Translations under genes and position numbers: made by a program
The notes under the pieces: generated by a model
The model's database searches: none
Told to the model about the DNA's origin: nothing
The model's input: only the letters and a program-made list of their open reading frames with translations
Source: Candidatus Eiseniibacteriota bacterium
GTDB lineage: Bacteria > Eisenbacteria > RBG-16-71-46 > CAZAMP01
Reading direction: 5' to 3'
Length of the DNA stretch: 64,000 nt
Assembly (NCBI GenBank): GCA_965224245.1
Contig: OZ245046.1
Span: 5,280,001-5,344,000, forward strand
In this document: positions 19,926-64,000 of the stretch, piece after piece
Numbering within the stretch: the first letter of the stretch is position 1
Layout of the letters: every line of letters begins with the position of its first letter

Positions 19926-20185
19926 CGTCCGGTCTCCGGTGCGGGGGACCCGAGGCCCTCGTTGGCATTCGCCCCAACTTCGCAATTTAGGGTTCAGGTT
20001 GCCCCAGAGCAATCCGATCCATGGGGCGACGCGTGTAGCTGGCCGAAAACCGCCACGGAGAAACACCGAGCGAGATCGGTCACGTCACCCGGAACGAAAT
20101 GACGTCGCGATCGAGAGAGAACGCGCGACACGCGGTCTCCAAACCACGGGGCACCGATGGTCGGCGCCCAGCCAGGGAGGATCTC

Positions 20186-30716: not shown

Positions 30717-30860
30717 GTGGCCGATCCTGTGTCCCGGCCCCCGCGCCGGTCGGAGGACGTTTGGAGTTCCCGCTCCCTCCAATCATCGACCGGGATCCCA
30801 TGCGTGTTTAGGCGAGATGCGCTATGTCCATGGGAAACTAGGCCGATGCGACGAGAGGGT

Positions 30861-31427: not shown

Positions 31428-31697
31428 TGGAAGTCCTCGAAAGGGTGTTGTCACAGCTACCACTCGGACACCGACGGTTACGGATCTCGACGCATGTAAT
31501 GATCGGCACGAAAAGACGCGTTTGTAGACTCTTCCGAACCGGTTGAGGTCAGCCCTGCGGGGTGCCCAGCAATCTGAGGTTCGGATCGACAGAAATCTGA
31601 TGAACCGGCCCCCGGCGGTACGGGCGAGGGGTGCCCGTGTGGGGCATAACGTGCTCGGGTGCAACCTCTTGTAGGGGAAGGCGGGAGTCCCCGCCAC

Positions 31698-46739: not shown

Positions 46740-47617
46740 GCGGCCGCTCCTTCCGTGGCCCGGTTCTGCCGGAGGAACCACAGGACGAACGCGAGCAGGA
46801 TCAGGAAGATCACCACCGAGAACGCGGCCGCGTACCCGTAGCGGTAGTACGTGAACGCCGCCTTGTACACGTACGTGACCAGAATGTGCGACTTGTCCGA
46901 CGGCTGTCCGCCGTTCGTGACCAGCCAGATCACGTTCAGGTTGTTGAACGTCCACACGGTGCCGAGCGAGATGGCGGGCACCATGACCGGTCTGAGGTTC
47001 GGGATCGTGATGTGCCGGAAGCGCTGCCACGCCGACGCGCCGTCGATCGACGACGCTTCGTACAGCTCCTTCGGGATCGACTGCAGACCGCCGAGGGCGA
47101 TCACCATCATGAACGGAAAGCCGAGCCAGACGTTCGTGAGCGTGGGGGCCACGAACGCCCAGAGCTCGTTCGACAGCCACGGCACCTTGTCGGCGTGAAG
47201 CCACTTCTCGAGGATCAGATTGAACGCGCCGTACTCGTAGTTGAACATCCCGCGCCAGGTCAGCGCGACGATGTACTGCGGCACCGCCCAGGGCAGGATC
47301 AACAGCGCGCGGTAGATGGGCTGTCCGGCGAACGGACGGTTCAGGAGCACCGCGAACGCGACGCCGATCACCACGTGACTCACGACGTTTGCCACCGTCC
47401 AGATGACGGTCTTCAGGAACGTCGTGTAGAGCGCGGGCTCCTCGAAGAGGCGCCGGTAGTTCTCGAACCCGACGATCTTCGGATCACGCACCGTGTACAG
47501 GTTCATGTTCGTGATCGACAGGTACAGGTTGTAGACGAACGGATAGAGCACCACGATCGCGATGATCGCGACCGTGGGCGCGAGGAGGAGATACGGCAGG
47601 CGGCGTTCTCGGGTCAT
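46736..47617 (-). CDS. malF: Maltose/maltodextrin ABC transporter permease
   Basis: VGFENY, LILPWAVP, NVWLGFPFMM, LQSIPKELYEASSIDGA, TFNNLNVI. Confidence 0.93.
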   Translation of the reverse strand: MTRERRLPYLLLAPTVAIIAIVVLYPFVYNLYLSITNMNLYTVRDPKIVGFENYRRLFEEPALYTTFLKTVIWTVANVVSHVVIGVAFAVLLNRPFAGQPIYRALLILPWAVPQYIVALTWRGMFNYEYGAFNLILEKWLHADKVPWLSNELWAFVAPTLTNVWLGFPFMMVIALGGLQSIPKELYEASSIDGASAWQRFRHITIPNLRPVMVPAISLGTVWTFNNLNVIWLVTNGGQPSDKSHILVTYVYKAAFTYYRYGYAAAFSVVIFLILLAFVLWFLRQNRATEGAAA

Positions 47618-48879
47618 CAGCCCTTCATCTCGTCGATCTTCCGGAGCGCCTCCTGCTGCATCTGTCGGGCCGCCTCGGCCGGGGTGAGCGATCCGTTCCA
47701 GACGCTCTGGACGCCGGGGCGCATCGCGTCCCAGATCGCGCGCATCTCGGGTACGACCGGCATGCGGCGCCCGACCATCACCTGCGAGCGCGAGGCCTCG
47801 AGCGTCTCGTCGCTCTGGATCGCCGGATCCTGGTAGGCCGCCTTGCGCGTGGGCAGCGTTCCGAGCCGCGTCGCGAAGTCGATCTGGCTGCGAACCGACG
47901 TGAGCTCCTCCAGCAGCGCCTCGATCCGCGCCAGCTTGGCCCCGGTGACGCGCGCGTTGATGGAGTACCCCTTGGACGAGATCATGGGCGCCGGCCACCG
48001 TCCGTCGATCCTCGGCAGACGACTGATCGCGATGTCGACGCCCGCCTTGCGATACGCCGACCACGACCACGGTCCGTTGATGATCATCGCCGCCCGGCCC
48101 TCGCTGAACAGCGTGTGTGCAAGCTCGTAGTCGCACTCCGCCGGTGACACGCCGTGCTCGTTTCGGAGCGCGTCGTATAGCCCCAGCGCCTTCACCATCG
48201 CGGGCGTGTCGAGCGTCGGGGCGTGGCTCTCGTCCATGACCCAGCCCCCGGAGCCGGTCAGAAACGGGATCACCCAGAACGGCTCACCCACCTGGAACAC
48301 GAGCCCGTACCGATCGATGCGGCCGTCGCCGTTCGTGTCGACCGTGTTGGCCTTCGCGATGGCCACCAGCTCGTCCCAGGTCTCGGGCGCGTCGGGGACG
48401 AGCGCGGTGTTCCGCACGAGCGCCAGGTGATTGCCCAGCTGATCGGGCAGCGCCCACACGTGACCGTCCAGCGTGTCGAACGCCTCGGGCACGAACGCGT
48501 CGAGCGCGTCGCCGAGGATCTCGTCCAGGGGATGGATCACGCGCATGATCGAGAACGGGCCGATCTGATCGGAGGGACCGAACACGAGATCCGGTCCGCC
48601 GCCGGCCAGCGCCGCCGTCTGGAACTTCGTTCGAAGATCCTCGGTGGACTCGTGACTCACCTCGAACGTGAGCTCCGGGTGATTGGCCTGTACCTCGGCC
48701 AGGTGCTCGGTCAGGACCGATCGCTCCTCGGGATCCATCTGGACCCAGATCGCGATCGTGGTGTCCGTGGCCGACCCACCGTCACCTCCGCCGCAGGACA
48801 GGGTGAAGGTCGCCACGATCGCGCAGGCGACCGCGATCGCGCCCGCGCGAGAACGGATTCCGATCCTCGAAGTCCACAT
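47617..48879 (-). CDS. malE: Maltose/maltodextrin-binding lipoprotein (MalE/MdxE-like)
   Basis: Lipobox FTLSC; GPDL..SDQIG, PETWDEL, AAMIINGPW, MPVVPEMRAIW. Confidence 0.9.
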   Translation of the reverse strand: MWTSRIGIRSRAGAIAVACAIVATFTLSCGGGDGGSATDTTIAIWVQMDPEERSVLTEHLAEVQANHPELTFEVSHESTEDLRTKFQTAALAGGGPDLVFGPSDQIGPFSIMRVIHPLDEILGDALDAFVPEAFDTLDGHVWALPDQLGNHLALVRNTALVPDAPETWDELVAIAKANTVDTNGDGRIDRYGLVFQVGEPFWVIPFLTGSGGWVMDESHAPTLDTPAMVKALGLYDALRNEHGVSPAECDYELAHTLFSEGRAAMIINGPWSWSAYRKAGVDIAISRLPRIDGRWPAPMISSKGYSINARVTGAKLARIEALLEELTSVRSQIDFATRLGTLPTRKAAYQDPAIQSDETLEASRSQVMVGRRMPVVPEMRAIWDAMRPGVQSVWNGSLTPAEAARQMQQEALRKIDEMKG

Positions 48880-49219: not shown

Positions 49220-51289
49220 ATGATCACCCGCCGAATCGCGTTGCCGGCCTGCGCCGCGTCGGCCTTTCTGTGCGGCCTGACCGGGGCCGCCGGAGCCGAG
49301 GGTTTCGGCACGCCGACGATCGACGGCGTCATCGATGCCGTCTACGGCGACCCCGAAGCCACCGACCCCACCGACGATGCGCCGCAGGGATTCGAGCACC
49401 TCGACCTCGGTCGCCTGTATGTCTGCAATGACGTCGACTACTGGTACTTCGCGTTCGAGGCGGACGACGACGTCCTGGCCACGAACTGGGGCAAGTACAT
49501 GATCGAGATCGACACCACGAACGACGCCGCCGGCGCGACCGTGGACGCGTGGGGTCGCAACGTCGTGATCAGCGATCCGCACAAGCCCGAGTTCTCGCTC
49601 CGGAGCTGGGTGGACGGCGGCGGCGCCTACAGCGCGGCGAAGACCCAGGTCTGGGCCTGGGACGGCGCCTCCTGGTCGACCGACGGCGCCCTGGACGACG
49701 CCGCCGTGGCCGAGGGCACAACCAGCGTGTTCGAGTGGAAGGTGGCCAAGACCCGCATCGGCAGCCCGTCGACGATCTGGTGCGAGGTGTTCACGACCGC
49801 CGGCGGCGGCGGCGACAACGCGCAGGACACGTCGAACGACCCCGCCGACGACTGGAACGCCACCGACTGGACGACCACCGCGGTGCTCGCCAACTCCACC
49901 GAGGTCGCCGAGACGTCGGGATCGGACGTGACGCCGCCGACGCTGGTCTCGGTCACGGGTATCGGTCAGGATCCGATCACCGACCTCCTGCTCGAGTTCT
50001 CCGAGGCGCTCGAGCAGCTGTCCGCCGAGACGACCGGCAACTACAGCATCGACGATACCGCCGTGACGATTCTCAGTGCCATCCAGGACACGATCGAGCC
50101 GCGCAAGGTGACCCTCGTCACCGAGTACGTTCCGGCTCCCGCGGGCGAGGGCTCGAGGGGCGCTACAGGGCTTCCGTACGGGCAATGCTTCGAGGTGACG
50201 GTGACCGGCGTCGAGGACGTCGCGGGCAACCCGATCGTCGACGACGGCATCTCGAACGTGGCCGGGTTCCAGCTCTGGAGCCTCACCTTCCGGGCCAACA
50301 TGAACCTGCGCCTCCGGGACGTGTCGTACTTCCCCGACACCGAGGACGTGGGTCTCGAGGGCAGCCAGTCGCCCCTCACGTGGGATCCGGTCGGCGATCT
50401 CCTGCTCGACGACGCCGACGGCGACAGCGTGTACACGGCGACCGTCCAGTTCTCGTTCCCGTGTGAGAGCATCCCGGCACCCGGCGGAAACACGCTCGAG
50501 TACAAGTTCACCCACAAGGGCGAGTACGAGTCGATCGGCAACCACTTCTACGCGTTCGATCCGCTCATCGGTGAGGACGTGCTCAACATCTGGTGGAACG
50601 ACGTCGCGCCGAGCGACATCACGGCCAACGTCGTCGACGTGATCTGGACGGTCGACACGAGTGGAGAGACCGTGCCCCCCGTGGACGGCGTGGACGTGCT
50701 CGCGCTGAACGGGAGCCAGCTCCCGCTCAACTGGGACGTCCCACCGCTGGGGTCGAGCGCGCTTCGGGACAACGGAGTCGCGCCCGACGATACGGCCGGC
50801 GACGACATCTGGTCGATCCGCGTGCGCTTCCCGGTGGGCACGTTCAGGACCGTCTACCACAAGTTCGTCCTGAACGACGTCTACGAGTGCGAGGACCAGG
50901 ACAACCGCAGCATCACCATCGACGACGCGACCTACAGCGACACGAACCCGCAGATCCTGGACACGGCCACCTACGATCAGTGCGTGATCCTCGGCGTCGA
51001 AGACGCCTCGCTGCCCCGGCTGCAGATGGTGGCGCGGCCGAACCCGTCGACCCGGGGCACGTTCATCGCATTCACGACCGATCGTGAGACCGACGTCCGG
51101 GTGACCGTGCACGACGTGCAGGGACGGCAGGTACGTGAGCTGGAGGACGGGCCGATGCCGATCGGGCGCACGGCGATCTTCTTCGACGGGCGTGACGCCG
51201 GCGGGCGTGCGCTCGCGTCGGGCACGTACTACGTCCGGATCGAGACGGCGGATGGCGTGGAGACGCGTCCGCTGACGCTGATGCGCTGA
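49220..51289 (+). CDS. Secreted multi-domain carbohydrate-binding protein with C-terminal FlgD/T9SS-like Ig domain
   Basis: Signal peptide; N-terminal PTIDGVID..Y beta-sandwich; Ig-like DVTPPTL; two CBM-like modules (DDADGDSVY..YKF; LRDNGVAPDDTAGDDIW); CTD RPNP..VHDVQGRQV..DGRD..ASGTYYVR. No catalytic motif seen. Confidence 0.75.
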   Translation: MITRRIALPACAASAFLCGLTGAAGAEGFGTPTIDGVIDAVYGDPEATDPTDDAPQGFEHLDLGRLYVCNDVDYWYFAFEADDDVLATNWGKYMIEIDTTNDAAGATVDAWGRNVVISDPHKPEFSLRSWVDGGGAYSAAKTQVWAWDGASWSTDGALDDAAVAEGTTSVFEWKVAKTRIGSPSTIWCEVFTTAGGGGDNAQDTSNDPADDWNATDWTTTAVLANSTEVAETSGSDVTPPTLVSVTGIGQDPITDLLLEFSEALEQLSAETTGNYSIDDTAVTILSAIQDTIEPRKVTLVTEYVPAPAGEGSRGATGLPYGQCFEVTVTGVEDVAGNPIVDDGISNVAGFQLWSLTFRANMNLRLRDVSYFPDTEDVGLEGSQSPLTWDPVGDLLLDDADGDSVYTATVQFSFPCESIPAPGGNTLEYKFTHKGEYESIGNHFYAFDPLIGEDVLNIWWNDVAPSDITANVVDVIWTVDTSGETVPPVDGVDVLALNGSQLPLNWDVPPLGSSALRDNGVAPDDTAGDDIWSIRVRFPVGTFRTVYHKFVLNDVYECEDQDNRSITIDDATYSDTNPQILDTATYDQCVILGVEDASLPRLQMVARPNPSTRGTFIAFTTDRETDVRVTVHDVQGRQVRELEDGPMPIGRTAIFFDGRDAGGRALASGTYYVRIETADGVETRPLTLMR

Positions 51290-52450: not shown

Positions 52451-53836
52451 CTACTCGATCGTGCTGATCCGCCAGGTCGAGCGCCGCTCGTCCAGCTCGA
52501 AGCGATAGTCGCCGTCGCCCGGGAACTTGATCGACAGCCCCGTGCCCTCGCCGCTGACGATGCAGGCGTCGCCGCTCGTGACCCCACCCACGAACTCGTG
52601 GATGTCATCCTCGCTCGTGCACGTGCCGTAGTCGTCGTCCCACGCCTCGTTCGTGCGGAACTTGAGCACCCACACCGAGTCGGCATCCACCGAGATCGTC
52701 AGCGTGTCGGCCCACACGCACTGCGACGGGTCCACCAGTGTCATGTGCGGGCCGCCGGGTGGGGGCGGCCAGCCGTTGAACTCGCCGACGATCTCGATCG
52801 CCGAGCTGGTCTGGCACGCCTCGTCCACGAGCAGCGTGATCGGATCCAGCGTCGTCGTGGTCTCGGCGGTCACCTCCACGTCCGTGATCGTTTGGGAGAC
52901 ATAGCCGGCGGCCGAGATCTCGACGCCGACCGTTCCCACCGGAACGTCCTCGATCACGAACGCGCCCGCGGCGTCGGTCGTGCCCTCGATCGTGCCGGTG
53001 CCGGCCGTCACGCGAACGGTGGCCGTGGGCAGCTCGGCCGGATCGTCGTCGAACGTGACCGTGCCCGCGACGGTCCCGAACTCGGCGTCCACGAGCGTGA
53101 TCGTCTCCAGATCGGCCGAGCCGCCGTCGGTGATCACGACCCCGGAGACGTGCCGGTCCACGAAGCCCTCGGCGATGATGACGACCTCGTACGTGCCGGC
53201 GGGCAGGTTCGGAATCGAGAAGGTTCCGGTGCCCGAGCGCGACGTGGTCACCGGCGCCTCGTCCATCGGCTCGATCCGATACGACGGCGGCGTGGTGCCC
53301 TCGTAGAGGAGGATGTTGTACAGCCCGGACTCGAGCACGTCGGCCCGCATGTCGTTGCCGGTGCCCGAGCCGCGCTCGGTGGTGCCGACGAGGCCGTCGC
53401 CGCCGCCGGCGTTCACGTAGTCGTCGCCCCAGGCCCTGCCCACGACGAACTTCCAGGTGATCTCCCCGCTGGACAGATCGCGCGTGTCGACCCAGGCGCC
53501 GCCGCCGAGATAGCGCATGCCCGGCTCGGACCAGTGTGTGGTGCTCCACTCGTTCCAGGAGCCGGTCGGGTGGATCGTGCTCGTGGTCGTCATGTAGCCC
53601 GGCACGTAGTCACGAAGCGCGTAGATGGTGGCGACCTCGCCGACGCCGAGCCCGGCCACGACGCCGCGCAGCTCGGCGGTTCCGGCGGCCTCGCCGGTGG
53701 GGGTGAGGAGCGTCGAGTCGGGTGCGTCGTCACAGCCGAGCCCGCCCAGACCGGCGACGCCGAACGTGGTCAGCGCGGCGAGTCCGAGGAAGGCTCGCCG
53801 GCGCCGCGGGCTCGTGATCGTGAAGGGCTTGTTCAT
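52451..53836 (-). CDS. SusE/SusF-like starch-binding lipoprotein with carboxypeptidase-regulatory-like Ig repeats
   Basis: RRRAFL (Tat-like) + lipobox GLGC; TGSWNEW..WKF..AWGDDY and VGEFNGW..LKFRTNEAWDDDYG..GDYRF modules flanking two GTV/GxFxI Ig domains. Confidence 0.7.
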   Translation of the reverse strand: MNKPFTITSPRRRRAFLGLAALTTFGVAGLGGLGCDDAPDSTLLTPTGEAAGTAELRGVVAGLGVGEVATIYALRDYVPGYMTTTSTIHPTGSWNEWSTTHWSEPGMRYLGGGAWVDTRDLSSGEITWKFVVGRAWGDDYVNAGGGDGLVGTTERGSGTGNDMRADVLESGLYNILLYEGTTPPSYRIEPMDEAPVTTSRSGTGTFSIPNLPAGTYEVVIIAEGFVDRHVSGVVITDGGSADLETITLVDAEFGTVAGTVTFDDDPAELPTATVRVTAGTGTIEGTTDAAGAFVIEDVPVGTVGVEISAAGYVSQTITDVEVTAETTTTLDPITLLVDEACQTSSAIEIVGEFNGWPPPPGGPHMTLVDPSQCVWADTLTISVDADSVWVLKFRTNEAWDDDYGTCTSEDDIHEFVGGVTSGDACIVSGEGTGLSIKFPGDGDYRFELDERRSTWRISTIE

Positions 53837-53839
53837 TGA

Positions 53840-54247
53840 CTAGTCCACGATGAGTACGGAGTTGAACCCGCCGAAGCCGTCGTCGGTCCGGTTCGGGTTG
53901 TTGGGATCTTCCTTCCAGTTCGTCTCGTCGACCTTGAACTTGTACTGGTAGCGTCCGGGTTCCAGGTCCACGACGAGTCGCCAGACGCCGTCGCCGTCCT
54001 CGTCGGCCATCTCGCCCACGCGGAACCCGCCGGTCTCGGCCAGGCCCGCGCACCAGTTGTTGCTCTCCCAGCTCCCGCAGAGCTGGACGATCTGGGCCGA
54101 GGGGCTCGCGAACTGGAACATGTATCCGCCCTGGACGCGTATGGGCGGTGGCAAGCGCTTCTTGATGAACGTGAGCCGCGTGCAGCCGGCCGCCAGCACG
54201 ACCACGGCCAGGGCCATGCACAGCCCCCGGATACGGTGACGCGACAT
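53840..54247 (-). CDS. Small lipoprotein with CBM48/AMPK-beta-like glycogen-binding domain
   Basis: AAGGAGG RBS; lipobox LAAGC; VQLCGSW..DGDGVW..LEPGRYQYKF.VD..WKEDPNNP..DDGFGGFNS. Confidence 0.85.
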   Translation of the reverse strand: MSRHRIRGLCMALAVVVLAAGCTRLTFIKKRLPPPIRVQGGYMFQFASPSAQIVQLCGSWESNNWCAGLAETGGFRVGEMADEDGDGVWRLVVDLEPGRYQYKFKVDETNWKEDPNNPNRTDDGFGGFNSVLIVD

Positions 54248-54284
54248 GGTCACCTCCTTCGAACGGCGCGCCGGCGGCGCGCGT

Positions 54285-56492
54285 CTAGTAGCGAACGATC
54301 GCCTCGAGCTGGAAGCGGCGTTCGTCTTCCAGGGCCCGCTCCGCGCTCACGATGGCGTCGCCGAGCCCCAGGTAGTTCGTCTGCGCCGCCGATCCGTTGG
54401 CGCCGCGCTCGAACAGGAACAGGTCCCGTCCGATGTAATCGTACTCGTTGACCGGCGCGTCGATCACGTAGGGATCCACGCCGTAGCTGAACGCGATGCT
54501 GATGGTGCTCGTCGGCAGGTACGCGATCTCGATGAACGTGGAGACGAACGAGTCGTTCAGATCCAGGATCGCCGAGTCGTAGCTGGCGATGCGGGTGTCG
54601 ACGTAGCCGCGCCAGCGCGGGGCGAGCATGCCCGTCAGGTGGACCAGCGTCTCGACGTAGCTCGGGGTCTTGCCCACGCCGGCGCCGGCGAACGTGCCGT
54701 GATAGGCGAGCTCGACCTGGCGTCCGTCGTGGAGCCCGATGGCGAGGTGCGGCTTGATCACCGACGCGTCGTTCCCGCCGAGCAGCGTGAGCCGCTCGTA
54801 GCTCACCTCGTGCTCGCCGTTCTCGAGCCAGAAGTTCCGCTGGTCGAACCACATCTGCGCGCCCCAGGGCGTGGCCTCGTCGTACGAGAAGCTCGTCTGC
54901 TCGACGTCGACCGCAGCCGCGACCGGGCGGTCGATTCCGGGGAACGGGTCCCACTCGCGCTCGATCGACGCCGAGAGCACGTTCATGTCGTTCGTGAGGT
55001 CGGTGCCCGCCGTGGTGGCGATCGGGGTCAGGTCGTGACGCTGGAGCTCCCAGCTCAGGCTCGCGTCGACGTCCAGGGCGAGCGCGGGCCACGTGAGGCC
55101 GAGAAACGCGCGCACGCTCTCGTCCAGGGTCTGGCTGCCCCGGGGGCCGATGTCGGACTCGTTCCCGGCGCTGACGACCGTGTACACGTCGCTGCCGTCG
55201 ACGGTCGCGGTCTGGATCTCGACGTCGTCACGGACACCCCCCTGGCGGTCCTCGATGACCGACTCGCCCCACAGGAGCTCGGCGTTCACCCGGGGGCCGT
55301 GCTCGCTCCGGTACTCGACGTCGCCACCGAAGGCGTTCCAGCGCTCGAAGAGGCCGACGTACGTCGATCGCGTGCCGAGCGTGTCGACGGTGGCGCTGGG
55401 CACGATCGTCTGAAGCGAGCCGGGGTTGTAGCTCCGATCCATCCGGAACGAGACGCCGACGCGAACGTCGCCCCCCGGCGCCGAGGTGAGCGTCCCCGCA
55501 CGCGCGGCCAGGACGTCCTTGCCGGCGTCACTGACCGCGGTCCGGTAGTCGGTGAGCGGCTGGTCGAACTCGAAGCGTCCCTCGTCGAACACGAGCTGGT
55601 CGGGCGTCATGAACGTCTCGGTGACACCCGGGTGCGTGAAGCCGCCGGGCTCCGAGTCGTCGGAGTAGAGGAGCTGCGCCTCGACGCCGCGAAACGTCTT
55701 CGTCGCCCACGCGCCCACGGTCTCGTAGCCGTAGTCGTGGTCGTAGATCCCGATGCCCCCGACGAGCCGAAGCGGGTCGTCGAACCGGCCCACGCCCTCG
55801 TTGTCCCACAGGACCCCGTCGATCTCGTCGTTGGAGAGCCGCAGCGACCCGCGATCAAAGTTCAGGCGCGTCTGGTAGAAGTCGACGTTGTCGGCCTCGT
55901 TGTGGATGTTGGTGAGCACGTGCGCGCTCAGGTCGTCGTTCACGCGCACGGCGAAGTCCAGGTCGATGTCGAGCGTGGGGCGGCGTAGCTCGTAGCGCGA
56001 GCTCGGCCCGTCGGCCTCCCGGGCGACGTAGTCTCCGATGGATCGCCCGGTCACCACGACCTTCGGGCTCAGCGTCGTGTTGGACGTCGCCGCCATCGCG
56101 GTGAGCGAGCCGTCGGCGGCGATCGTGATCGCGGAGTTTCCGTAATCACCGGCGGTCACGGGGTTTGTGGGGTCGGCGATCCAGTTGCCGTCGACGACGA
56201 ACTTGTAGAGCTGCTGACCGGCCTCCAGGGGAACCGTGATCGCCCACACGCCGTCCTCGTTCGTCATCGGGTTGGCGGTCGTGGACCAGCCGTTGAACTC
56301 GCCGGCCAGACTCACCGAGGACGCGTTCGGATCGGCGTACGTGAACCGGATGCCACCGTCCACGGCCACGGGCTGGGCGTTCGACGCCGCGGGCACGACG
56401 AGAACAGAGGCGATCGCGACCAGGACGGACCACACCCACGAGCGGGCGTGGCGGCGCGGAGTGCGTGGCGACGATACGGCGCGAGTGCCCAT
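54285..56492 (-). CDS. CBM48 domain fused to a predicted outer-membrane beta-barrel
   Basis: Signal peptide; SVSLAGEFNGW..YKFVVDGNWIADP; then amphipathic strands ending FQLEAIVRY (terminal aromatic). Confidence 0.72.
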   Translation of the reverse strand: MGTRAVSSPRTPRRHARSWVWSVLVAIASVLVVPAASNAQPVAVDGGIRFTYADPNASSVSLAGEFNGWSTTANPMTNEDGVWAITVPLEAGQQLYKFVVDGNWIADPTNPVTAGDYGNSAITIAADGSLTAMAATSNTTLSPKVVVTGRSIGDYVAREADGPSSRYELRRPTLDIDLDFAVRVNDDLSAHVLTNIHNEADNVDFYQTRLNFDRGSLRLSNDEIDGVLWDNEGVGRFDDPLRLVGGIGIYDHDYGYETVGAWATKTFRGVEAQLLYSDDSEPGGFTHPGVTETFMTPDQLVFDEGRFEFDQPLTDYRTAVSDAGKDVLAARAGTLTSAPGGDVRVGVSFRMDRSYNPGSLQTIVPSATVDTLGTRSTYVGLFERWNAFGGDVEYRSEHGPRVNAELLWGESVIEDRQGGVRDDVEIQTATVDGSDVYTVVSAGNESDIGPRGSQTLDESVRAFLGLTWPALALDVDASLSWELQRHDLTPIATTAGTDLTNDMNVLSASIEREWDPFPGIDRPVAAAVDVEQTSFSYDEATPWGAQMWFDQRNFWLENGEHEVSYERLTLLGGNDASVIKPHLAIGLHDGRQVELAYHGTFAGAGVGKTPSYVETLVHLTGMLAPRWRGYVDTRIASYDSAILDLNDSFVSTFIEIAYLPTSTISIAFSYGVDPYVIDAPVNEYDYIGRDLFLFERGANGSAAQTNYLGLGDAIVSAERALEDERRFQLEAIVRY

Positions 56493-58102
56493 CAGAAGTT
56501 TCCCTTCACGATCAGCTTGACGATGTTCCGGTTGTCGGCGCTGCCGGCCAGGTCGCCGTCGTCGACGGGGTTCGGCGTGTCGCCGATCCAGCCCGGTCCA
56601 TACTCTAGAAACGCCTCCATGTTGCCGCGCGGGCGGTACTGGAGCTGCGTGAACAGTCCCTTCCGGAGGCGGGCGGGGTCGTTTCCGAACGTGTAGCGCC
56701 CGTAGACCTTGAGTCGCGGGGTGAGGTTGACGCTGCTCTCGACCGACGCGAGCGCCTTCTCGTCGACGCTGTCGAAGTCCTTGATCTTGCCCTGGATCCG
56801 CATCCAGGCCAGGCGGCTCTCCACCTGCACCTCGGCGAAGAGGTCCCGGTTCTGCGTGACGTCCGGGAACTCCGGCTCCGAGAGGTTCCGGTCGATTCGA
56901 TTCGAGTAGTAGAACTTCGTGGTGAAGCCGTTCACGTACTCGACGTACATCTCGGCGTAGAGCTCGGTGAACTTCCGCCGGTCGAAGACGAATCGCTCGT
57001 AGTTGGTGTAGTTGAGCGCCAGCGTGATCGCGCGCTCGGGCACCAGGTACCACGAGTTGAGCCAGATGCCCTGCTCGCCCTGCGCGCGCTGGTCGTCGAG
57101 GGGGCTCGAGAGACGCCCGAGCGGGTTCACGAACTCCGGCCCGTAGTACCAGAAGGACGGCGCGAGGTTGTAGTAGCCGAACGTCGGGTGACCGACGCGA
57201 AGCGCGCGCAGCTCGCCCACCAGCGCGAGGTCGTCCGGCAGCCAGGGATCGAGGCGCTTCAGGCTCGCACTTCCGGGGTCGAAGCCGTCGTCACCCTCGC
57301 TCTGGAATCCCAGGCGCGTCGCGAACTCCAGCGACAGGTCGGTGACGCCGAACTGGTAGCGCATGTCGCCCGCCACCAGATCGAACGCGTTGCTGGGCTC
57401 GCTGGCCTGCGCCTCGACCTTGCGGTTGTACGTCATGCCCAGGCGAAGGCGGTTCCCGAGGAACGGGCGGCGCAGCCGAACGACGTGCGCGTCGTCGGTG
57501 CTGACCGGCGCGAACGCCTCGGCTCCGGCGCCCGGGTTGGACTGCCCGCTGAAGTCGCTGGAGAGGAGCGTCATGTTGGTGCCCCCGAGGCCCCAGAGGT
57601 CCAGACGTGCGCCCTGCGCGTTGTCGGAGTCCTTCAGGTTGTTGGGCTCGACCACGCGGATGAGGTGATTCTCGACCCAGAAGCGATCCTGCCGCTGGAA
57701 GAGGTACAGGTCGGCTCCCCGCGTGGTGCGATCGATCCGGTAGCGCAGATGGCTCTCGCGGTACTGGAACATCGGCCGATTCTGATCGTTGGATCCCGGG
57801 TTCCAGTCGGCCTCGAACTTGACGAACGCCTCCACGCCGGTGGCCGGTGCCGAGAACAGGCGAAACTGCGCGCCGTTGTAGGTGTCGGAGTTGTTGGAGT
57901 CGAAGTCCCACTCGTTGCTGCGGTCCTCCTTCCGCGCGTCGATCTGGATCTGGTACTCGCCCTCGAGCTTGGTGATCGCCGAGGCGTCGATGGCGACGCC
58001 CCCGATCAGCGCGACGGCCAGCGCGCGCGTCGCCAGGCGCGTCGCGGCGTGGCCGGGACGGTCGGGGCGGGCGCGCTCGGCGCGGCGGACTCGGGCTACC
58101 AT
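56492..58102 (-). CDS. Predicted outer-membrane beta-barrel protein of unknown family
   Basis: Signal peptide ..IDASA; alternating strands throughout; ends VKLIVKGNF. Its stop overlaps the downstream start, and its start overlaps the upstream gene's end. Confidence 0.7.
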   Translation of the reverse strand: MVARVRRAERARPDRPGHAATRLATRALAVALIGGVAIDASAITKLEGEYQIQIDARKEDRSNEWDFDSNNSDTYNGAQFRLFSAPATGVEAFVKFEADWNPGSNDQNRPMFQYRESHLRYRIDRTTRGADLYLFQRQDRFWVENHLIRVVEPNNLKDSDNAQGARLDLWGLGGTNMTLLSSDFSGQSNPGAGAEAFAPVSTDDAHVVRLRRPFLGNRLRLGMTYNRKVEAQASEPSNAFDLVAGDMRYQFGVTDLSLEFATRLGFQSEGDDGFDPGSASLKRLDPWLPDDLALVGELRALRVGHPTFGYYNLAPSFWYYGPEFVNPLGRLSSPLDDQRAQGEQGIWLNSWYLVPERAITLALNYTNYERFVFDRRKFTELYAEMYVEYVNGFTTKFYYSNRIDRNLSEPEFPDVTQNRDLFAEVQVESRLAWMRIQGKIKDFDSVDEKALASVESSVNLTPRLKVYGRYTFGNDPARLRKGLFTQLQYRPRGNMEAFLEYGPGWIGDTPNPVDDGDLAGSADNRNIVKLIVKGNF

Positions 58103-59058
58103 CTCGGCTCTCCGAACGGCACTCGGAGCGACAGCTCGTACGAGATCCCGAGGTCGTCGTTCGTCACGAACGCGACGTCGACCAGAAAGCGCTCGGCGGC
58201 CAGGCCGACGCCTCCGGCGAAGTCCCCGCCCGAGACCCCCGCGCGGAGCGCGAACACGTCGTAGAAGGACACCTCGGCTCCCGTGTTGAAGAGCCAGTCC
58301 CCGCGCGCGTCCTGGTTGAGGCTCAGCGCGAACACCGACTCCGGATGCCACCGATACGAGAGGCTGACGTCGTGGATGCGCTCGAGCCGCGTGCGACCGC
58401 CGCCGTCCACGAAGTCGAACGTGGGCTCGATCACGTTGCGGACGACGTAGCCCACGGCCACCGTGGGGGACAGGTTCACCAGCGCGGACAGATCCGCCGT
58501 GAGCTTGCGCTGGGAGCCGTAATCGATCTCGCCGGCGTCGGCGTCGTAGCTGACGCTGGCGAGCTTGACGTTGGCCCCGATCGCCAGCGCGTAGCTCCCG
58601 GTGTAGGCCACGACGTCGCGCGCGACGCCGAACGTGACCATGTCCTCGGAGACGACGTTCTCGACCCCGGTGTGATGCCACGCGACCGAGACCGACGTCC
58701 GGTCGCGGTGATGGACGGCGCTCGCGAACTGGGTACCCAGGTTCTCCACGACGTAGGGCCGGCTGTGCACGAAGAGGATCTCGCTCCGGCGCATGGTGAC
58801 CAGGGCGGCGGTGTTCCACGACACGGCCGACCCATCGTCGGCGATGGCCGAGTAGGCGCGCCCGATGGCGGTCCCTCGTGCCCCGGCGAGCATGCGCTCG
58901 AAGTGGGCGCCCACCGGCTGCGGCGCGAGGGCGCTCAGGGCGACGGCGGCGAACGCCCAGACGAGGATCGAAGCGTCCGGTGACGTGACCCTTGCCCCGG
59001 CGTGGCGCGAGAGCGCGGCGCGCGCCGCCGCCCGAGCGCGGTTCGCCCGCCCGCTCAT
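58096..59058 (-). CDS. PorV/PorQ-like (FadL-type) beta-barrel
   Basis: GARGTAIGRAYSAIADDGSAVSWNTAAL matches the PorV-type GAR..GMG.A..A...D..A..WNPA.L N-terminus; GAE..ALRAG..GGVG; C-terminal LSLRVPF. Confidence 0.78.
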   Translation of the reverse strand: MSGRANRARAAARAALSRHAGARVTSPDASILVWAFAAVALSALAPQPVGAHFERMLAGARGTAIGRAYSAIADDGSAVSWNTAALVTMRRSEILFVHSRPYVVENLGTQFASAVHHRDRTSVSVAWHHTGVENVVSEDMVTFGVARDVVAYTGSYALAIGANVKLASVSYDADAGEIDYGSQRKLTADLSALVNLSPTVAVGYVVRNVIEPTFDFVDGGGRTRLERIHDVSLSYRWHPESVFALSLNQDARGDWLFNTGAEVSFYDVFALRAGVSGGDFAGGVGLAAERFLVDVAFVTNDDLGISYELSLRVPFGEPRW

Positions 59059-60311
59059 CTCACCACCGTGAACGCACGCTTCGCGCGGCTCGGGCCGACT
59101 TCCTCGACCACGCTCAGGATGTAGATACCCCCGGGAACCGGCCGATCGGCGCCGTCACGTCCATCCCAGCGATCCTTGGTCGGGTCGGTGGGAGAGGTGG
59201 CCGGCCGGACGTCCTCGACGTAGAGCGAGCGAACGACCTGGCCGCGCATGTCGTACACGCGGGCGGTCAGGCTCACCTCGCGGAAGTCCTCGGACGTAGA
59301 CGGGTCGAGACGGATCTCGAACTCGAGGTCTCGCGACTCCTCGGGCGAGACGATCGGGTTGGTGATGTGGAGGCTCGTGACGTCGAACTTGATGCCCTCG
59401 ATGGGTGGACGCCGCTTGAAGCGGATGCGCTCGCGGACCGAGGCGCCGAAGTCCGGGTAGCCCGGGACGCCATCGCCGTCCACGGCGTCGTCCGGGTCGG
59501 CGTCCCCGTCCAGCGGAAGGATCGCGTAGTTGTCGATCGTGACCAGCGCGGCGCTGTCCACCGAGTGTCCGTTGAAGTTGTCCGGTGCGGAGTCGGGGCC
59601 TCCGGTGCCGTCGGCGCCGGCGGTGACCACCGCGGCGAGCTTCAGGCGGTCCATGCCGTCGGGGACTCGCCACACGTCGGCGTCCAGCGCCGGCACGAAG
59701 TCCTGCTCGGACTGACCGAAGAAGACCAGCGACCACGGAATCGCGAACTCCATCGCACGATCGGTCGAGCTGCCGTCGAAGGTCGCCACACCTCGGAACT
59801 GCGTGGACGCGACCTGCACGACCTGATTCACGCCGGTGACCGTCCACATCTGCGGCGCGCCGTTCCGGTCCCAGGTGGCGACGAAGAAGTCGGGAGCGAA
59901 GTCACTGGAGAAGACGAAGTTACGGCGCCAGGCATTGACCTCGGTCATGCCGTCGAGACCGGCGACGCCGTCGGCCGAGGGCACCTCGTCGGCGACGTCC
60001 ACGAACAGGATCGTGTTGTTGTCGAAGATGAAGCCGTCAACGGCCAGGTAGAGCGAGTCGGCGTCCCAGGTGACCTTGATCTGGTTGACGTCGTTGAAGG
60101 GCCCCCACTCGGAGTCGTTCAGCGACTCCTCGAGCGTGTTCAGCTCCTCGTTGACGCCGAACACGACCTCGTCGGCCTCGAAGTCGGACGTGAAGCCGTC
60201 GACCTCGAGTCGACCGCCGCGGTCGAGCTCGGTGATGGCGTCGGCCCGTGGCGCGATCGCGCACAGCAAGAGCGCGAGACCGGCGCGGACGACCGGAGCC
60301 TCCAGATACAT
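59055..60311 (-). CDS. Secreted acidic beta-sandwich protein with C-terminal FlgD/T9SS-like domain
   Basis: Signal peptide; VDG, VTWDADSLYLAV, MEFAIPWS (CBM9/DOMON-like); CTD NPIVSP..VYDMRGQVV..WDGRD..PGGIYIL. Confidence 0.72.
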   Translation of the reverse strand: MYLEAPVVRAGLALLLCAIAPRADAITELDRGGRLEVDGFTSDFEADEVVFGVNEELNTLEESLNDSEWGPFNDVNQIKVTWDADSLYLAVDGFIFDNNTILFVDVADEVPSADGVAGLDGMTEVNAWRRNFVFSSDFAPDFFVATWDRNGAPQMWTVTGVNQVVQVASTQFRGVATFDGSSTDRAMEFAIPWSLVFFGQSEQDFVPALDADVWRVPDGMDRLKLAAVVTAGADGTGGPDSAPDNFNGHSVDSAALVTIDNYAILPLDGDADPDDAVDGDGVPGYPDFGASVRERIRFKRRPPIEGIKFDVTSLHITNPIVSPEESRDLEFEIRLDPSTSEDFREVSLTARVYDMRGQVVRSLYVEDVRPATSPTDPTKDRWDGRDGADRPVPGGIYILSVVEEVGPSRAKRAFTVVR

Positions 60312-60410: not shown

Positions 60411-63400
60411 ATGATTTCCCGACGTTCCACGATGGCGAGCGGACGCGCTCTCGAGCGGCTCGCCGTTGTGGTGGTGGCGCTGTCGATGCTGGCGCCGATG
60501 GCCAGGACCGCCGATGCCGAGACGGTCACGTTCCGATGCGAGGCGCCGGGCGCGAACGCGGTCTTCCTGGCGGGGTCGTTCAACGAGTGGTCGCCAACCG
60601 CGCAGGCCATGTCCGACGCGGACGGCGACGGTGTCTTCGAGGTCGCGCTCGACCTCGAGACCGGGGCGTACCCCTACAAGTTCGTGATCGACGGGACCTG
60701 GACCACCGATGAGACGGCCGCCGGGTTCGAGGCCGACCCGTACGGCGGACGGAACTCGATCGTGTACGTCGGCATGGAGCCTCCGGCGCCCGAAGCGGGC
60801 GGGGGCCGGGCGGCATCGCCGACGGGAGCCGCCACCGCCGCCGCGCCCGCGAGCTCGTCCAGGACGCACGACGTCACGTTCCGGTACGAGCCCGTCATCG
60901 GGGGCGAGCGGGACGTCTTCGTCGCCGGGACGTTCAACGGCTGGGTCACCGATCAGGATCGACTCACCGACGCCGATGCGGACGGCGTCTTCACCCTCAC
61001 GATGCCGCTGGCCGAGGGGCGCCACGACTACAAGTTCGTCGTGGACGGCAACTGGATGACCGACGAGAACGCGGTCGAGTTCGCCGACGACGGCTTCGGG
61101 GGCCGGAACTCCGTGCTGATCGTCGACGCCCAGGGCCAGGTGACCCCCGAGCGAGCGCAGGCCGCTCCGGCGGCGGCCGACGGTGCGCTCTACGACGTCA
61201 CGTTCACCCACGTCGCACCCGCCGCGCGCGAGGCGTTCCTCGCCGGCAGCTTCAACGACTGGTCGACCACCGCCACGCCGATGACGCGCTCGGACGACGG
61301 CACGTTCTCGACCACGCTCGTGCTGTCCCCGGGCTCGTATCCTTACAAGTTCGTCGTGGACGGCACCTGGACCACCGACGAGACGGCCGACCAGTTCGTG
61401 GACGACGGCTTCGGGGGCCGGAACTCGGTCATCGTGGTCGACGAGCGGTTCACGTCGGTGCCGCTGGAGCGGGGGGACGGGCTCGTCTACGAGGGCGACA
61501 TCCAGCACACGGGATCGATCGCCGAGTGCAACATGGTCTCGGACACCGAGGTCGTGTTCCGCGCGCGCGCGTATCGCAACGACGTGGACGGCGTCTCGCT
61601 GATGTGCCGCCGGAGCGTGGAGGGGCCGTGGGACGAGCGTCCGATGACGCGTTTCTCCAGCGACGCCGCGTTCGACTACTTCGAGATCACCTACAGCCGG
61701 CCCGACCCGGTCGACGTGGTGAACTACGGCTTCCTGTACCGGGATGGGGACGTGACCCGCTGGCTGGGTCCGCGCGGGTTCGAGGCCGCCGGCGTCACCG
61801 GAACCGCGTTTCTGTTCAACGCCGAGACCGCGGTCGTGCTGGATCCGCCCGGCTGGGTGCGCGACGGCGTCTTCTACCAGATCTTCCCCGATCGCTTCCG
61901 GAACGGCGACAGGAAGAACGATCAGAAGTTCGAGGAGTGGTACTACGAGGGACGCACGCGATTGCCGCGGGTCGGCCCGCAGAACGGCGAGTACTACCAC
62001 TTCGTGAAGGACTGGGACGACTTCTCCGGTCTGGCCGAGAGCCCCTATCGCTCGGACGGGAAGCCCGACTACTTCTCGTTCTACGGCGGCGACATCCAGG
62101 GGGTCATGGACGAGCTCGACTACCTGGCCGACCTCGGCATCACGATCATCTACTTCAACCCGCTGAACGAGGCCCGGTCGAATCACAAGTACGACGCCAC
62201 CGACTACATGACGCTCGACCCCCACTTTGCCGACCCCGAGCTGTTCGCCCGGTTCGTGGCCGAGGCGCACGAGCGGGGGATCCGGATCGTCGTCGACACC
62301 GTGTTCAATCACACCGGCGACACGCACTGGGCGTTTCAGGACGCGGTGAAGAAGGGGCGCGAGTCGGAGTACTGGGACTGGTACGAGTTCAAGCGCTGGC
62401 CGCTTCCCGAGCAGGGCGAGTACGACGCCTCCAGCTACTACGCGTGCTGGTGGGGCTTCGGATCGCTGCCCGACCTCAACTACGACCTCGTGCTCCCCGC
62501 CGATCGCGAGCACACGGTGTCGGACGTCTCGCAGGCCACGCCCAACCAGCCCGTGGTCGACCATCTGCTCGAGGTGGCGACGTTCTGGATCCAGGACATG
62601 GACATCGACGGCTTCCGTCTCGACGTTCCGAACGAGGTGCCGTTCTGGTTCTGGAAGATCTTCTGCGCCGAGGTCCGGCGTCTGAAGTCCGACGTGTACA
62701 TCGTGTGCGAGATCTGGGGAGATGCCACGACCTGGATCACGCCCGACCTCGTGGACGCGACCATGAACTACCGCTACTTCCGCGACCCGGTCCTGCACTG
62801 GATCGGACAGGGACAGGGCAACGCGGTCTCGTTCGATCGCGAGCTGGCGCCCGGCCGCGTCGTGTACGCGCCGCAGTCGCAGCAGGTCATGATGAACCTC
62901 ATCGACAGCCACGACACGGTGCGCTTCCGCACCCAGGCCAGGGGCGACGCGCGGCGGCTGAAGCTCGCGGCGCTGTTCCAGATGACGTACGTCGGAGCGC
63001 CGCACATCTACTACGGCGACGAGGTGGCCATGGAGGGCGGCGCCGACCCCGACTGCCGCCGTCCGTTCCGCTGGAGCTGGACCGAGGATCCGCTGCGCCG
63101 CGACGTGCACGATCACTACGCGAAGCTGATCGACATCCGCAAGCAATGGCGCGCGCTTCGCCGGGGCACGTTCACGCCGCTGGTCGCGTCCGGGAACACG
63201 TACGCGTATCTCCGCCAGGACACCGAGGGATCGGTGGTGGTGGTGCTGAACAACGGCGAGAAGGCAGTCGAGGCCGCAGTGCCGCTGGACGGCGATCGGG
63301 CGGGGGCCGTGTTCGTGGATGCCTTTACAGGAGAACGAGTTAACGCCCAGGGAGGGGAGCTCTCGGTGGCCGTGCCGCCGGTCAGCGGACGGATCTTCAC

Positions 63401-63425
63401 GCTCGCCCATCCGAGCGGGTCCTGA
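60411..63425 (+). CDS. Exported neopullulanase/cyclomaltodextrinase-type GH13 with three N-terminal CBM48 modules
   Basis: Signal peptide; 3x LAG(S/T)FN.W..YKFV.DG.W.TD..GGRNS; VFYQIFPDRF, GGDIQG, SNHKYD, DTVFNH, DGFRLDV, CEIW, DSHDT, YYGDE..DPDCRR. Confidence 0.93.
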   Translation: MISRRSTMASGRALERLAVVVVALSMLAPMARTADAETVTFRCEAPGANAVFLAGSFNEWSPTAQAMSDADGDGVFEVALDLETGAYPYKFVIDGTWTTDETAAGFEADPYGGRNSIVYVGMEPPAPEAGGGRAASPTGAATAAAPASSSRTHDVTFRYEPVIGGERDVFVAGTFNGWVTDQDRLTDADADGVFTLTMPLAEGRHDYKFVVDGNWMTDENAVEFADDGFGGRNSVLIVDAQGQVTPERAQAAPAAADGALYDVTFTHVAPAAREAFLAGSFNDWSTTATPMTRSDDGTFSTTLVLSPGSYPYKFVVDGTWTTDETADQFVDDGFGGRNSVIVVDERFTSVPLERGDGLVYEGDIQHTGSIAECNMVSDTEVVFRARAYRNDVDGVSLMCRRSVEGPWDERPMTRFSSDAAFDYFEITYSRPDPVDVVNYGFLYRDGDVTRWLGPRGFEAAGVTGTAFLFNAETAVVLDPPGWVRDGVFYQIFPDRFRNGDRKNDQKFEEWYYEGRTRLPRVGPQNGEYYHFVKDWDDFSGLAESPYRSDGKPDYFSFYGGDIQGVMDELDYLADLGITIIYFNPLNEARSNHKYDATDYMTLDPHFADPELFARFVAEAHERGIRIVVDTVFNHTGDTHWAFQDAVKKGRESEYWDWYEFKRWPLPEQGEYDASSYYACWWGFGSLPDLNYDLVLPADREHTVSDVSQATPNQPVVDHLLEVATFWIQDMDIDGFRLDVPNEVPFWFWKIFCAEVRRLKSDVYIVCEIWGDATTWITPDLVDATMNYRYFRDPVLHWIGQGQGNAVSFDRELAPGRVVYAPQSQQVMMNLIDSHDTVRFRTQARGDARRLKLAALFQMTYVGAPHIYYGDEVAMEGGADPDCRRPFRWSWTEDPLRRDVHDHYAKLIDIRKQWRALRRGTFTPLVASGNTYAYLRQDTEGSVVVVLNNGEKAVEAAVPLDGDRAGAVFVDAFTGERVNAQGGELSVAVPPVSGRIFTLAHPSGS

Positions 63426-63548: not shown

Positions 63549-64000
63549 ATGAAGAAGTCGTTCGAGCTGGCGCTGGCGGTCGCCCTGGTCGCGATGATCG
63601 CGACCTCCGCCGACGCGTTCTACGCTCGAGGCGCGTACTACGCGGATTGGGCCGCCGACGCCGGCAACGAGCTTCGCGACGACGGGACGAACGGCGACAA
63701 GGTGGCCGGCGACGGGATCTTCTCGGGTCTGATCACCGCCGACGTGGTGGCCGGGGACTACGAGTTCAAGGTCGCCAACGCGGACTGGTCGATCTCGTAC
63801 CCCAACAGCAACGTGTGGATCACCACCACCGAGGACAACCAGCAGATCCTGTTCACGTTCGACACGAACACGTACGACGACGGGTGGTTCCCGGCCACGA
63901 ACATCGTCTGGAGCGACGCGCTTCGTCTCGGCTCGAGCTGGGAGATCACCGGCGGAGCTTCCGAGATCGGATCGTGGACGCCGGGCGATGGCGCGGCGGC
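63549..64000 (+). CDS. Secreted carbohydrate-binding-module protein (N-terminal part only; runs off the window)
   Basis: Not in the ORF track. My translation: MKKSFELALAVALVAMIATSADAFYARG..LRDDGTNGDKVAGDGIFS..GDYEFKVANADW..EIGSWTP; AGGAGG RBS. Confidence 0.8.
   Translation, partial: MKKSFELALAVALVAMIATSADAFYARGAYYADWAADAGNELRDDGTNGDKVAGDGIFSGLITADVVAGDYEFKVANADWSISYPNSNVWITTTEDNQQILFTFDTNTYDDGWFPATNIVWSDALRLGSSWEITGGASEIGSWTPGDGAA

Follow-up and report, generated by a model that had tools for sequence, protein, structure and literature searches.

A conserved six-gene cluster of Eisenbacteria as a candidate outer-membrane system for capturing and importing alpha-glucans

Gene order and conservation of the six-gene cluster

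In a 64,000-nucleotide stretch of contig OZ245046.1 (GenBank assembly GCA_965224245.1, positions 5,280,001 to 5,344,000 of the forward strand; hereafter the window) from an uncultured Candidatus Eiseniibacteriota bacterium, we saw that the region 52451-60311 is filled by six minus-strand open reading frames (ORFs), designated G1-G6, that overlap or abut one another (Table 1) and that we consider a candidate outer-membrane module acting on alpha-glucans. The source genome measures 6.94 Mb in 27 contigs, is 97.4% complete and has approximately 68% G+C, and the named relatives of the window's proteins were mostly from Candidatus Eisenbacteria (Eiseniibacteriota) metagenome-assembled genomes. An earlier note on this DNA had described the six genes as an outer-membrane operon, and all of the overlaps and gaps that it gave for the operon junctions match our reading of the DNA: G1 and G2 overlap by 4 nt (ATGA, in the context GTGAGATGAGC), G2 and G3 by 7 nt, and G3 and G4 by 1 nt (TGATG), while G5 follows G4 after 37 nt if counted from the ATG at 54247, which is preceded by GGAGG (31 nt if the GTG at 54253, the earliest G5 start, is used), and G6 follows G5 after 3 nt. 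An export signal on every product had also been proposed, and this agrees with the translations, in which the N-termini of G1-G4 are hydrophobic and signal-peptide-like and those of G5 and G6 carry lipoboxes (LAAG-C and GLG-C, respectively). Because the first four genes overlap so tightly, their arrangement suggests that the four proteins are made in fixed proportions; the "stoichiometric complex" of the same note draws on this translational coupling only.

Table 1. Genes of the cluster and of its alpha-glucan neighbourhood, in window coordinates (aa, amino acids; CTD, C-terminal domain of the type IX secretion kind; ABC, ATP-binding cassette)
Feature	Position	Strand	Description	Remarks
G1	59055-60311	-	Secreted 418-aa protein; conserved N-terminal region (~300 aa) and C-terminal FlgD-Ig type domain	
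G2	58096-59058	-	320-aa PorV/PorQ-superfamily outer-membrane barrel	Divergent dedicated paralogue
G3	56492-58102	-	536-aa predicted barrel, ~24 strands, plugless	C-terminal Phe
G4	54285-56492	-	735-aa protein; N-terminal CBM48 (~42-124), 20-aa linker, ~24-strand predicted barrel (145-734)	
G5	53840-54247 (ATG) or 53840-54253 (GTG)	-	CBM48 lipoprotein, 135-137 aa	
G6	52451-53836	-	461-aa lipoprotein; X25-like, two CarboxypepD_reg Ig-like domains, C-terminal beta-sandwich-like module	
GH13	60411-63425	+	Neopullulanase/cyclomaltodextrinase-type core, three CBM48, Sec signal peptide, no CTD	Divergently transcribed
X25 protein	63549-64000	+	Small secreted protein; runs ~283 nt past the window end	X25_BaPul_like, 2.9e-9
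CTD protein	49220-51289	+	689-aa secreted protein with type IX CTD	FlgD_ig, TIGR04183
MalE-like protein	47617-48879	-	Lipoprotein solute-binding protein	MalE model 3.4e-41, below cut-off
MalE-like protein and two ABC permeases	45912-48879	-		Starts approximate
GH13 with CTD	41996-44470	-	Secreted GH13 with CBM48 and FlgD_ig CTD	Likely surface alpha-glucan hydrolase
MalQ-GlgB fusion	37800-41879	-	MalQ (GH77, 4-alpha-glucanotransferase) fused to GlgB (branching enzyme)	GlgB models above cut-offs

A homologue of G3 was present in 20 of the 41 same-class genomes searched (the source genome included), and the order G1-G2-G3-G4-G5(-G6) recurred in the 19 same-class flanking regions that we fetched, wherever the contig was long enough. 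Scanning one genome per species (185,579 species) identified 103 relatives, from which 75 distinct loci were kept; by the titles of their records, 37 of these were labelled Eisenbacteria, 16 Cloacimonadota, 4 Gemmatimonadota, 2 Neomarinimicrobiota and 1 Krumholzibacteriia, with 15 labelled only "bacterium." Counting only loci in which G3 is flanked by 2.4 kb or more upstream and 3 kb or more downstream, we found G1, G2, G4, and G5 collinear around G3 in 43/43 Eisenbacteria-type (non-Cloacimonadota, non-Marinimicrobia) loci and in the one Marinimicrobia locus (1/1). The same five-gene core was collinear in 12/12 Cloacimonadota loci, seven of them recognized by tblastn and five more with a hidden Markov model (HMM); three of the five HMM-rescued G2s lay outside the alignment from which the HMM was made yet scored E-values of 1e-65 to 1e-70. 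Overlaps of 4 or 1 nt also recurred, at 39 of 61 G1/G2, 34 of 62 G2/G3, and 34 of 68 G3/G4 junctions, in a count that took the in-frame start nearest the upstream stop and that therefore favours short distances. The usual neighbour of the core is a neopullulanase-type GH13 gene, and a homologue of the divergently transcribed one of the window (60411-63425) was present in 39 of the 75 loci.

Since gene order is conserved across phyla, the set is more than a chance association, and the proposal that these genes are conserved together holds for the five-gene core, which is collinear in three or more phyla. We found no published description of the cluster in the full-text literature, of which subscription journals were covered only in small part. 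As judged from gene content and order, the module is real, conserved, and so far undescribed.

The two predicted barrels

The earlier note had taken the two unassigned products, G3 and G4, for barrels, and AlphaFold2 predicted both as confident barrels. The model of G3, from a 71-sequence alignment, was all-beta (predicted local distance difference test score, pLDDT, 87.8; predicted template modelling score, pTM, 0.81), and the model of G4, from a 35-sequence alignment, placed a CBM48 sandwich ahead of a large barrel (pLDDT 86.8, pTM 0.78). Counted from the DSSP strings of the models there were 24 strands in each, and both proteins are thus predicted to be beta-barrels of approximately 24 strands. 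Outer-membrane barrels usually end in an aromatic residue, and the C-terminal residues are Phe in G3 and Tyr in G4. The first strand of G3 comes directly after the signal peptide, and in G4 the CBM48 stands at the position of a plug; neither protein matched Plug or TonB_dep_Rec at E ≤ 0.01. This CBM48 (residues 46-120) matched both CBM_48 (PF02922; 4.8e-12, 46.5 bits against a Pfam cut-off of 22.4 bits) and AMPK1_CBM (PF16561; 2.7e-13, 50.4 bits against 26.8 bits), and its model superposed on the CBM48 of an amylase with Z 12.8 and a root-mean-square deviation of 1.5 over 87 residues.

By DSSP the gaps after odd-numbered strands total 182 aa in G3 and 233 aa in G4, versus 33 and 38 aa after even-numbered strands. 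In barrels the outer loops are usually long and the periplasmic turns short, and because of this asymmetry the termini of both barrels, and with them the CBM48 of G4, would be periplasmic by default. A linker of 20 residues separates the CBM48 from the first strand of the G4 barrel; autotransporters thread segments through the barrel lumen, and since a linker of this length could in principle do likewise, the models lead us to lean only slightly toward a periplasmic CBM48 over one displayed at the surface by threading. G4 has very long hairpins, a conserved Trp-rich loop (537-575) and a helical loop (671-725), and the conservation of its loops L3 (0.67), L9 (0.70) and L12 (0.67) compares with 0.48 for its strands; L9 is Trp-rich, with W543, W548, and W555 invariant. 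In G3 the corresponding values were 0.69 for L1 and 0.71 for L12 versus 0.65 for the strands. Such conservation would suit loops that bind partners or that line, plug or gate the lumen.

Searches for a known family returned little for either barrel. G3 had no match at all in Pfam or NCBIfam, and G4 matched no family in these libraries over the approximately 600 residues beyond its CBM48. Among the 71 members of the G3 family no Pfam family was matched at E < 0.001, and two members matched Porin_4 at 0.009; no usher family was matched by sequence in G3 or G4, only the barrels superposing on those of PapC/FimD; and LamB (PF02264) was not matched by any protein of the window. A search with the G3 profile against 1.84 billion representative proteins identified just 178 at E ≤ 1e-3 (54 at E ≤ 1e-30), from which we take the family to be small, and none of the distant full-length relatives (28 representatives scanned) carried a barrel family. 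One distant relative has a CsgG-like N-terminal piece, and along a protein of 5047 aa there are 14 matches to one 36-residue part of the G3 profile (P0269 and P0227).

Two candidate identities for G3 were tried and rejected. One of its relatives was labelled "Alginate export...", and 0/71 members of the family matched Alginate_exp (PF13372) at E ≤ 1; the window does hold a true Alginate_exp barrel (20099-21463, plus strand; 1.3e-21), which is unrelated to G3 and G4 and lies beside peptidase genes. The second, DUF6029, was a lead from a language model: G3 did not match PF19494 at E ≤ 1, and hhalign of the G3 family against the DUF6029 ORF of the genome gave a probability of 1%. That ORF (G000:C1:3866293-3867945, plus strand) is the sole DUF6029 member of the genome and encodes a large uncharacterised protein with no profile similarity to G3.

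Structure comparison by Foldseek and VIA-align matched the G3 model best to the ushers PapC and FimD (PapC Z 15.9; TM approximately 0.49), and also to MtrB (14.4), a SusC-like barrel (14.1), and AlgE (13.6), and matched the G4 barrel to TonB-dependent transporter barrels and FimD (Z 14-15, with TM < 0.4 to the TonB-dependent ones). These are matches to generic large barrels only, and no library family was excluded on that basis. Paralogy between G3 and G4 was likewise considered, and the hhalign result (probability 11%, E 0.0028, 110 columns) was too little to claim it. Both genes are single copy in the source genome by tblastn and HMM search, and we found there no paralogous cassettes for other sugars; since G3 and G4 are single copy, they do not belong to a general multigene family in this genome of the kind seen with polysaccharide utilization loci.

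Partner proteins and the alpha-glucan neighbourhood

The first two genes of the cluster appear to encode a secreted protein and a putative anchor for it. At the C-terminus of the window's G1 Pfam gave a weak FlgD_ig match (17.3 bits, cut-off 27), and among 56 aligned family members FlgD_ig was matched in 42, Por_Secre_tail in 11, and CHU_C in 6 at E ≤ 0.1; against the Protein Data Bank (PDB) the family profile matched FlgD Ig domains and, weakly, the C-terminus of PorU (E 0.015). We read this Ig-type domain as a putative type IX secretion CTD, the window protein itself scoring below the cut-off. The N-terminal region had no Pfam match in the 56 members and no sequence match in the PDB. CBM9, an atlas lead for this N-terminal domain, was rejected, as PF06452 matches four other genes and not G1 at E ≤ 10. 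Two further CTD proteins resemble G1: that of 49220-51289 has an N-terminal domain akin to G1's (hhalign against the G1 family: 75%, E 2.6e-5, 108 columns), and a 1491-aa protein encoded approximately 12-16 kb beyond the window end (G000:C1:5355744-5360216, plus strand) contains a segment that distantly resembles G1, with 26% identity across 339 residues.

G2 scored 41.4 bits (E 1.3e-10) against the NCBIfam model NF033709 PorV_fam, under the curated cut-off of 90 bits, yet each of the 47 members of its family matched both PorV_fam (best 2.5e-20) and PorVQ2 at E ≤ 0.01; for this reason we class G2 by its profiles as a relative within the PorV/PorQ superfamily rather than as a member of the curated family. 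Further models matched fewer members (PorV 23/47, PorQ 19/47, PorP 9/47). The family profile also matched the solved PorV structure 6h3i_F (E 3.3e-9), in an alignment that takes in the N-terminal motif as well as the C-terminal strands. There are three further PorV-like loci elsewhere in the source genome, which makes G2 an extra, operon-specific copy, and SprA (TIGR04189), the type IX translocon, was found above its cut-off in the source genome and in 5/5 other carrier genomes. In Porphyromonas gingivalis, PorZ is anchored to the cell surface by PorQ, and PorU by PorV (PMC5562754). By analogy, G1 may be held on the cell surface by G2.

G5 was the best-conserved member of the set, identities being 53-75% for Eisenbacteria and 40-49% for Cloacimonadota. 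Its CBM48 scored 25.0 bits against PF02922 and 32.1 bits against PF16561, both above the cut-offs, and the family profile matched the CBMs of pullulanase and of AMPK beta1 in the PDB. Residues C24, R33, L34, P37, W67, K105, and W113 were invariant in the family alignment, and W67, K105, and W113 presumably correspond to the sugar-contact positions of AMPK-beta. Scanning the fetched loci with a motif yielded 73 homologues of G5, all with a signal peptide and a lipobox Cys; since the scan selected for Cys plus the tether motif, the presence of the motif in 73/73 is by construction. The tether begins 1-5 residues past the lipobox Cys, reads [LM]-x-[FIV]-[IV]-K-[KR]-R-L-P-P-P and is basic. In the 44,177 six-frame ORFs of the genome we found it a single time; owing to this uniqueness it is no sorting signal of general use and has the look of a docking peptide for a specific partner. 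The lipoprotein surface-export signal of Bacteroidota is acidic, being given in PMC5080379 as C-X-K-(D/E)2, SDDDD or SDDFE. The basic tether of G5 is unlike that motif, and the rule may not hold in these phyla. One G5 homologue (L064:12725-13111) has a frame that leaves the family after the tether (27% identity), which looks like a frameshift or assembly error.

G6 was the least conserved member. In Pfam it showed two CarboxypepD_reg domains and a sub-threshold X25, and in the PDB it weakly matched scaffoldin Ig-like modules; in many of its homologues the Cys is followed by acidic or polar residues. With G6 as query we found it in 27 of 38 Eisenbacteria-type loci having at least 6.5 kb downstream and in 0/10 Cloacimonadota loci. 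In five Cloacimonadota loci (L092, L103, L105, L093, and L090) a sixth gene encodes a protein of approximately 320 aa with a weak CarboxypepD_reg match and is followed by a multi-CBM48 GH13, so that by gene order and family matches the sixth position appears to be occupied there by a different protein. G6 had been described earlier as SusE/F-like, a description that we do not retain: there was no SusF_SusE (PF16411) match at E ≤ 0.01, and the likeness is one of architecture only (a lipoprotein with tandem beta-sandwich modules). The N-terminus of the window's G6 (53740-53836) has S-P-R-R-R-R-A-F-L-G before the lipobox, a Tat-like twin-arginine sequence that is not kept in the homologues compared with it.

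The genes around the cluster (Table 1) bear on its substrate. Given the CBM48s of G4 and G5, the adjacent GH13, the CTD-tagged GH13, the MalE-like importer and the MalQ-GlgB fusion, the family assignments make a strong case for a link to alpha-glucans, in agreement with the glucan theme first proposed for the operon. The gene of the CTD protein at 49220-51289 is divergent from the MalE-like gene, and its product probably also serves this locus at the cell surface. The MalE-like protein, if read from the ATG at 48879, begins with a lipobox-bearing signal (L-S-C) and so appears to be a lipoprotein; the longer listed ORF overlaps the neighbouring gene. The MalQ-GlgB fusion, with its complete branching enzyme, is a single ORF of 1359 aa, which is unusual, and its location is assumed to be cytoplasmic. 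An epimerase gene and a glycosyltransferase-like ORF are also in the window. Farther away, at 27178-31697 on the minus strand, lie genes for a T2SSE-type ATPase, an 837-aa HEAT-repeat Ser/Thr protein kinase, and an FHA-domain protein, which may be a signalling or secretion module. SusD_RagB (PF07980) and LamB families were found 0 times in the source genome and 0 times in the five other carrier genomes; the source genome has seven TonB-dependent barrels, none of them in the window and the nearest approximately 70 kb off.

A candidate route for alpha-glucans and its alternatives

Taken together, we think that the six genes probably form a dedicated outer-membrane module for the capture and TonB-independent uptake of alpha-glucans (starch, glycogen or pullulan), a view that we hold with some reserve. 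G1 would be exported by type IX secretion through its C-terminal Ig-like domain and then be held at the surface by G2, by analogy with PorQ-PorZ and PorV-PorU. G3 and G4, alone or paired, would form the outer-membrane passage for the glucan chains, with their long, conserved, aromatic-rich loops lining or gating it. The CBM48 of G4 together with G5 would bind glucan at the channel, and standard barrel topology tips the balance a little toward its periplasmic exit over the surface; G5 might dock to one of the barrels through its invariant tether. From their families, G6, the X25 protein and the CTD-tagged GH13 would act outside the cell, binding the polymer and cutting it, the neopullulanase-type GH13 (three CBM48, a signal peptide and no CTD) would trim chains in the periplasm, and the MalE-like ABC system would import the products for processing by MalQ-GlgB in the cytoplasm. 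The sequences and models show the barrels, the CBM48s, the conserved order, the coupling and the neighbourhood; channel function, the anchoring of G1 by G2, the docking of G5 and a periplasmic ratchet are all steps that we infer. A more specific mechanism, in which the two different plugless barrels pass long or branched alpha-glucans without TonB, the periplasmic CBM48s (one fused to G4, one on a tether-docked G5) give direction by ratcheting the chain, as it emerges, toward the CBM48-rich neopullulanase, and the PorV-type barrel holds a type IX-secreted capture protein above the pore, is tentative and on balance doubtful.

Several points weigh against an uptake module. As modelled, a plugless barrel of 24 strands would be a very large hole unless filled by loops or a partner, which calls for caution about a simple channel. 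A channel does not by itself account for two different barrels, G3 and G4, which show no clear mutual paralogy. The N-terminal domain of G1 had no fold or sugar-binding match (in Pfam, with 56 members, or by profile search of the PDB), the family scores of the window's G1 and G2 are both under the curated cut-offs, and the lack of SusD and LamB families would still leave other porins as possible routes for sugars.

The same genes could instead build a surface display platform, with G2-G4 mainly anchoring a glucan-binding scaffold of G1 (through its CTD) and of G5 and G6 (by threading or docking) and the sugars crossing via unrelated general porins. Known members of the PorV/PorQ superfamily do hold CTD proteins on the surface, the invariant tether of G5 resembles a docking peptide, G6 has scaffoldin-like Ig modules, and large barrels that enclose a protein exist, with LptDE and MtrB among the structural matches. 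However, two barrels of approximately 24 strands far exceed the needs of anchoring, a CBM48 is fused straight to the barrel of G4, the conserved aromatic-rich loops suggest contact with sugar, and no maltoporin or SusCD-type channel was found in the six carrier genomes; we therefore regard a platform of this kind as unlikely. The same gene content and conservation could also be read as those of a Sus-like complex at the cell surface, where the G4 CBM48, G5, and G6 would all be exposed in SusD/E/F roles and G3 and G4 would replace SusC. The 20-residue linker of G4 is long enough to thread the lumen, and G6 homologues are often acidic after the Cys, like the Bacteroidota surface-export signal. 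Against this, the loop/turn asymmetry of both barrels points to periplasmic N-termini, the tether of G5 (K-[KR]-R-L-P-P-P) is basic rather than acidic, G6 has no SusE/F match and was not detected in Cloacimonadota with the G6 query, and neither barrel has a TonB-dependent plug, and we consider such a complex improbable. The earlier note had CBM lipoproteins taking the place of SusD/E/F; the surface exposure that this assumes is opposed by the default periplasmic topology and the basic tether, and its interpretation as a whole is partly supported.

Transport in the opposite direction seems very unlikely to us. The barrels would then secrete a self-made alpha-glucan as capsule or matrix, fed by periplasmic CBM48s, and the default topology does put the CBM48 in the periplasm; the MalQ-GlgB fusion and the glycosyltransferase-like ORF are in the window, and AlgE-type exporters are among the structural matches (Z 13.5-13.6). 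Export is nevertheless disfavoured because the conserved partners, a neopullulanase-type GH13 and a binding-protein-dependent ABC importer, work inward. In addition, the scanned part of the window showed neither a polysaccharide synthase nor an export component of the Wza/Wzx or another type, and Alginate_exp matches neither G3 nor its 70 relatives.

The uptake module that we favour would be analogous in its logic to the Sus system of Bacteroidota and yet be built from non-homologous parts. Like SusCDEFG with SusA/SusB, it would combine surface glucan binders and a surface GH13 with a dedicated outer-membrane passage and an inner importer, and here too a neopullulanase-type GH13 without a surface-sorting signal would act inside. 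Unlike Sus, the cluster has no SusC-type transporter (no plug, no TonB_dep_Rec), its genome has no SusD and its G6 no SusE/F match; it has in their stead two predicted barrels of ~24 strands, CBM48 modules that are probably periplasmic, and a barrel of the PorV/PorQ type paired with a CTD protein of its own. The G1-G2 pair recalls PorQ:PorZ and PorV:PorU of P. gingivalis, in that a barrel is translationally coupled to a protein with a C-terminal Ig-like domain and SprA is present, and differs from them in that G2 is under the PorV_fam cut-off, the pair lies inside a sugar operon with two more barrels, and the host is outside Bacteroidota. LamB, ScrY, and CymA are TonB-independent channels for alpha-glucan oligosaccharides that make aromatic contacts and work with a MalE-type ABC importer, as proposed here; those channels have 14-18 strands, however, and LamB and ScrY are homotrimers, whereas the cluster encodes two different barrels of ~24 strands, lacks a LamB family match, fuses a CBM48 to one barrel, and adds lipoproteins. 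In size the predicted barrels resemble those of LptD-LptE, MtrB-MtrA, and PapC/FimD (24-26 strands), and as with LptD-LptE a small lipoprotein (G5) is encoded alongside; with LptD, MtrB, and the ushers there is no sequence relation or family match, and the substrates are unrelated.

Uptake of polysaccharides across the outer membrane is known mainly from SusCD in Bacteroidota and from small specific porins like LamB in Proteobacteria. Members of Eisenbacteria, Cloacimonadota, and Marinimicrobia, almost all of them uncultured, are degraders found widely in soils, sediments, digesters, and the ocean. The five-gene module is a candidate uptake machine for these phyla, with two undescribed barrel families, a barrel-fused CBM48, and a cargo-specific PorV-type anchor, and it could show how large glycans cross the outer membrane without TonB and how components of type IX secretion are redeployed beyond Bacteroidota. 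If the more specific ratchet mechanism, which we hold as doubtful, is true, the module would represent a new kind of outer-membrane glycan importer in FCB-group phyla that lack SusCD and maltoporin, and a non-Bacteroidota route of "selfish" polysaccharide uptake.

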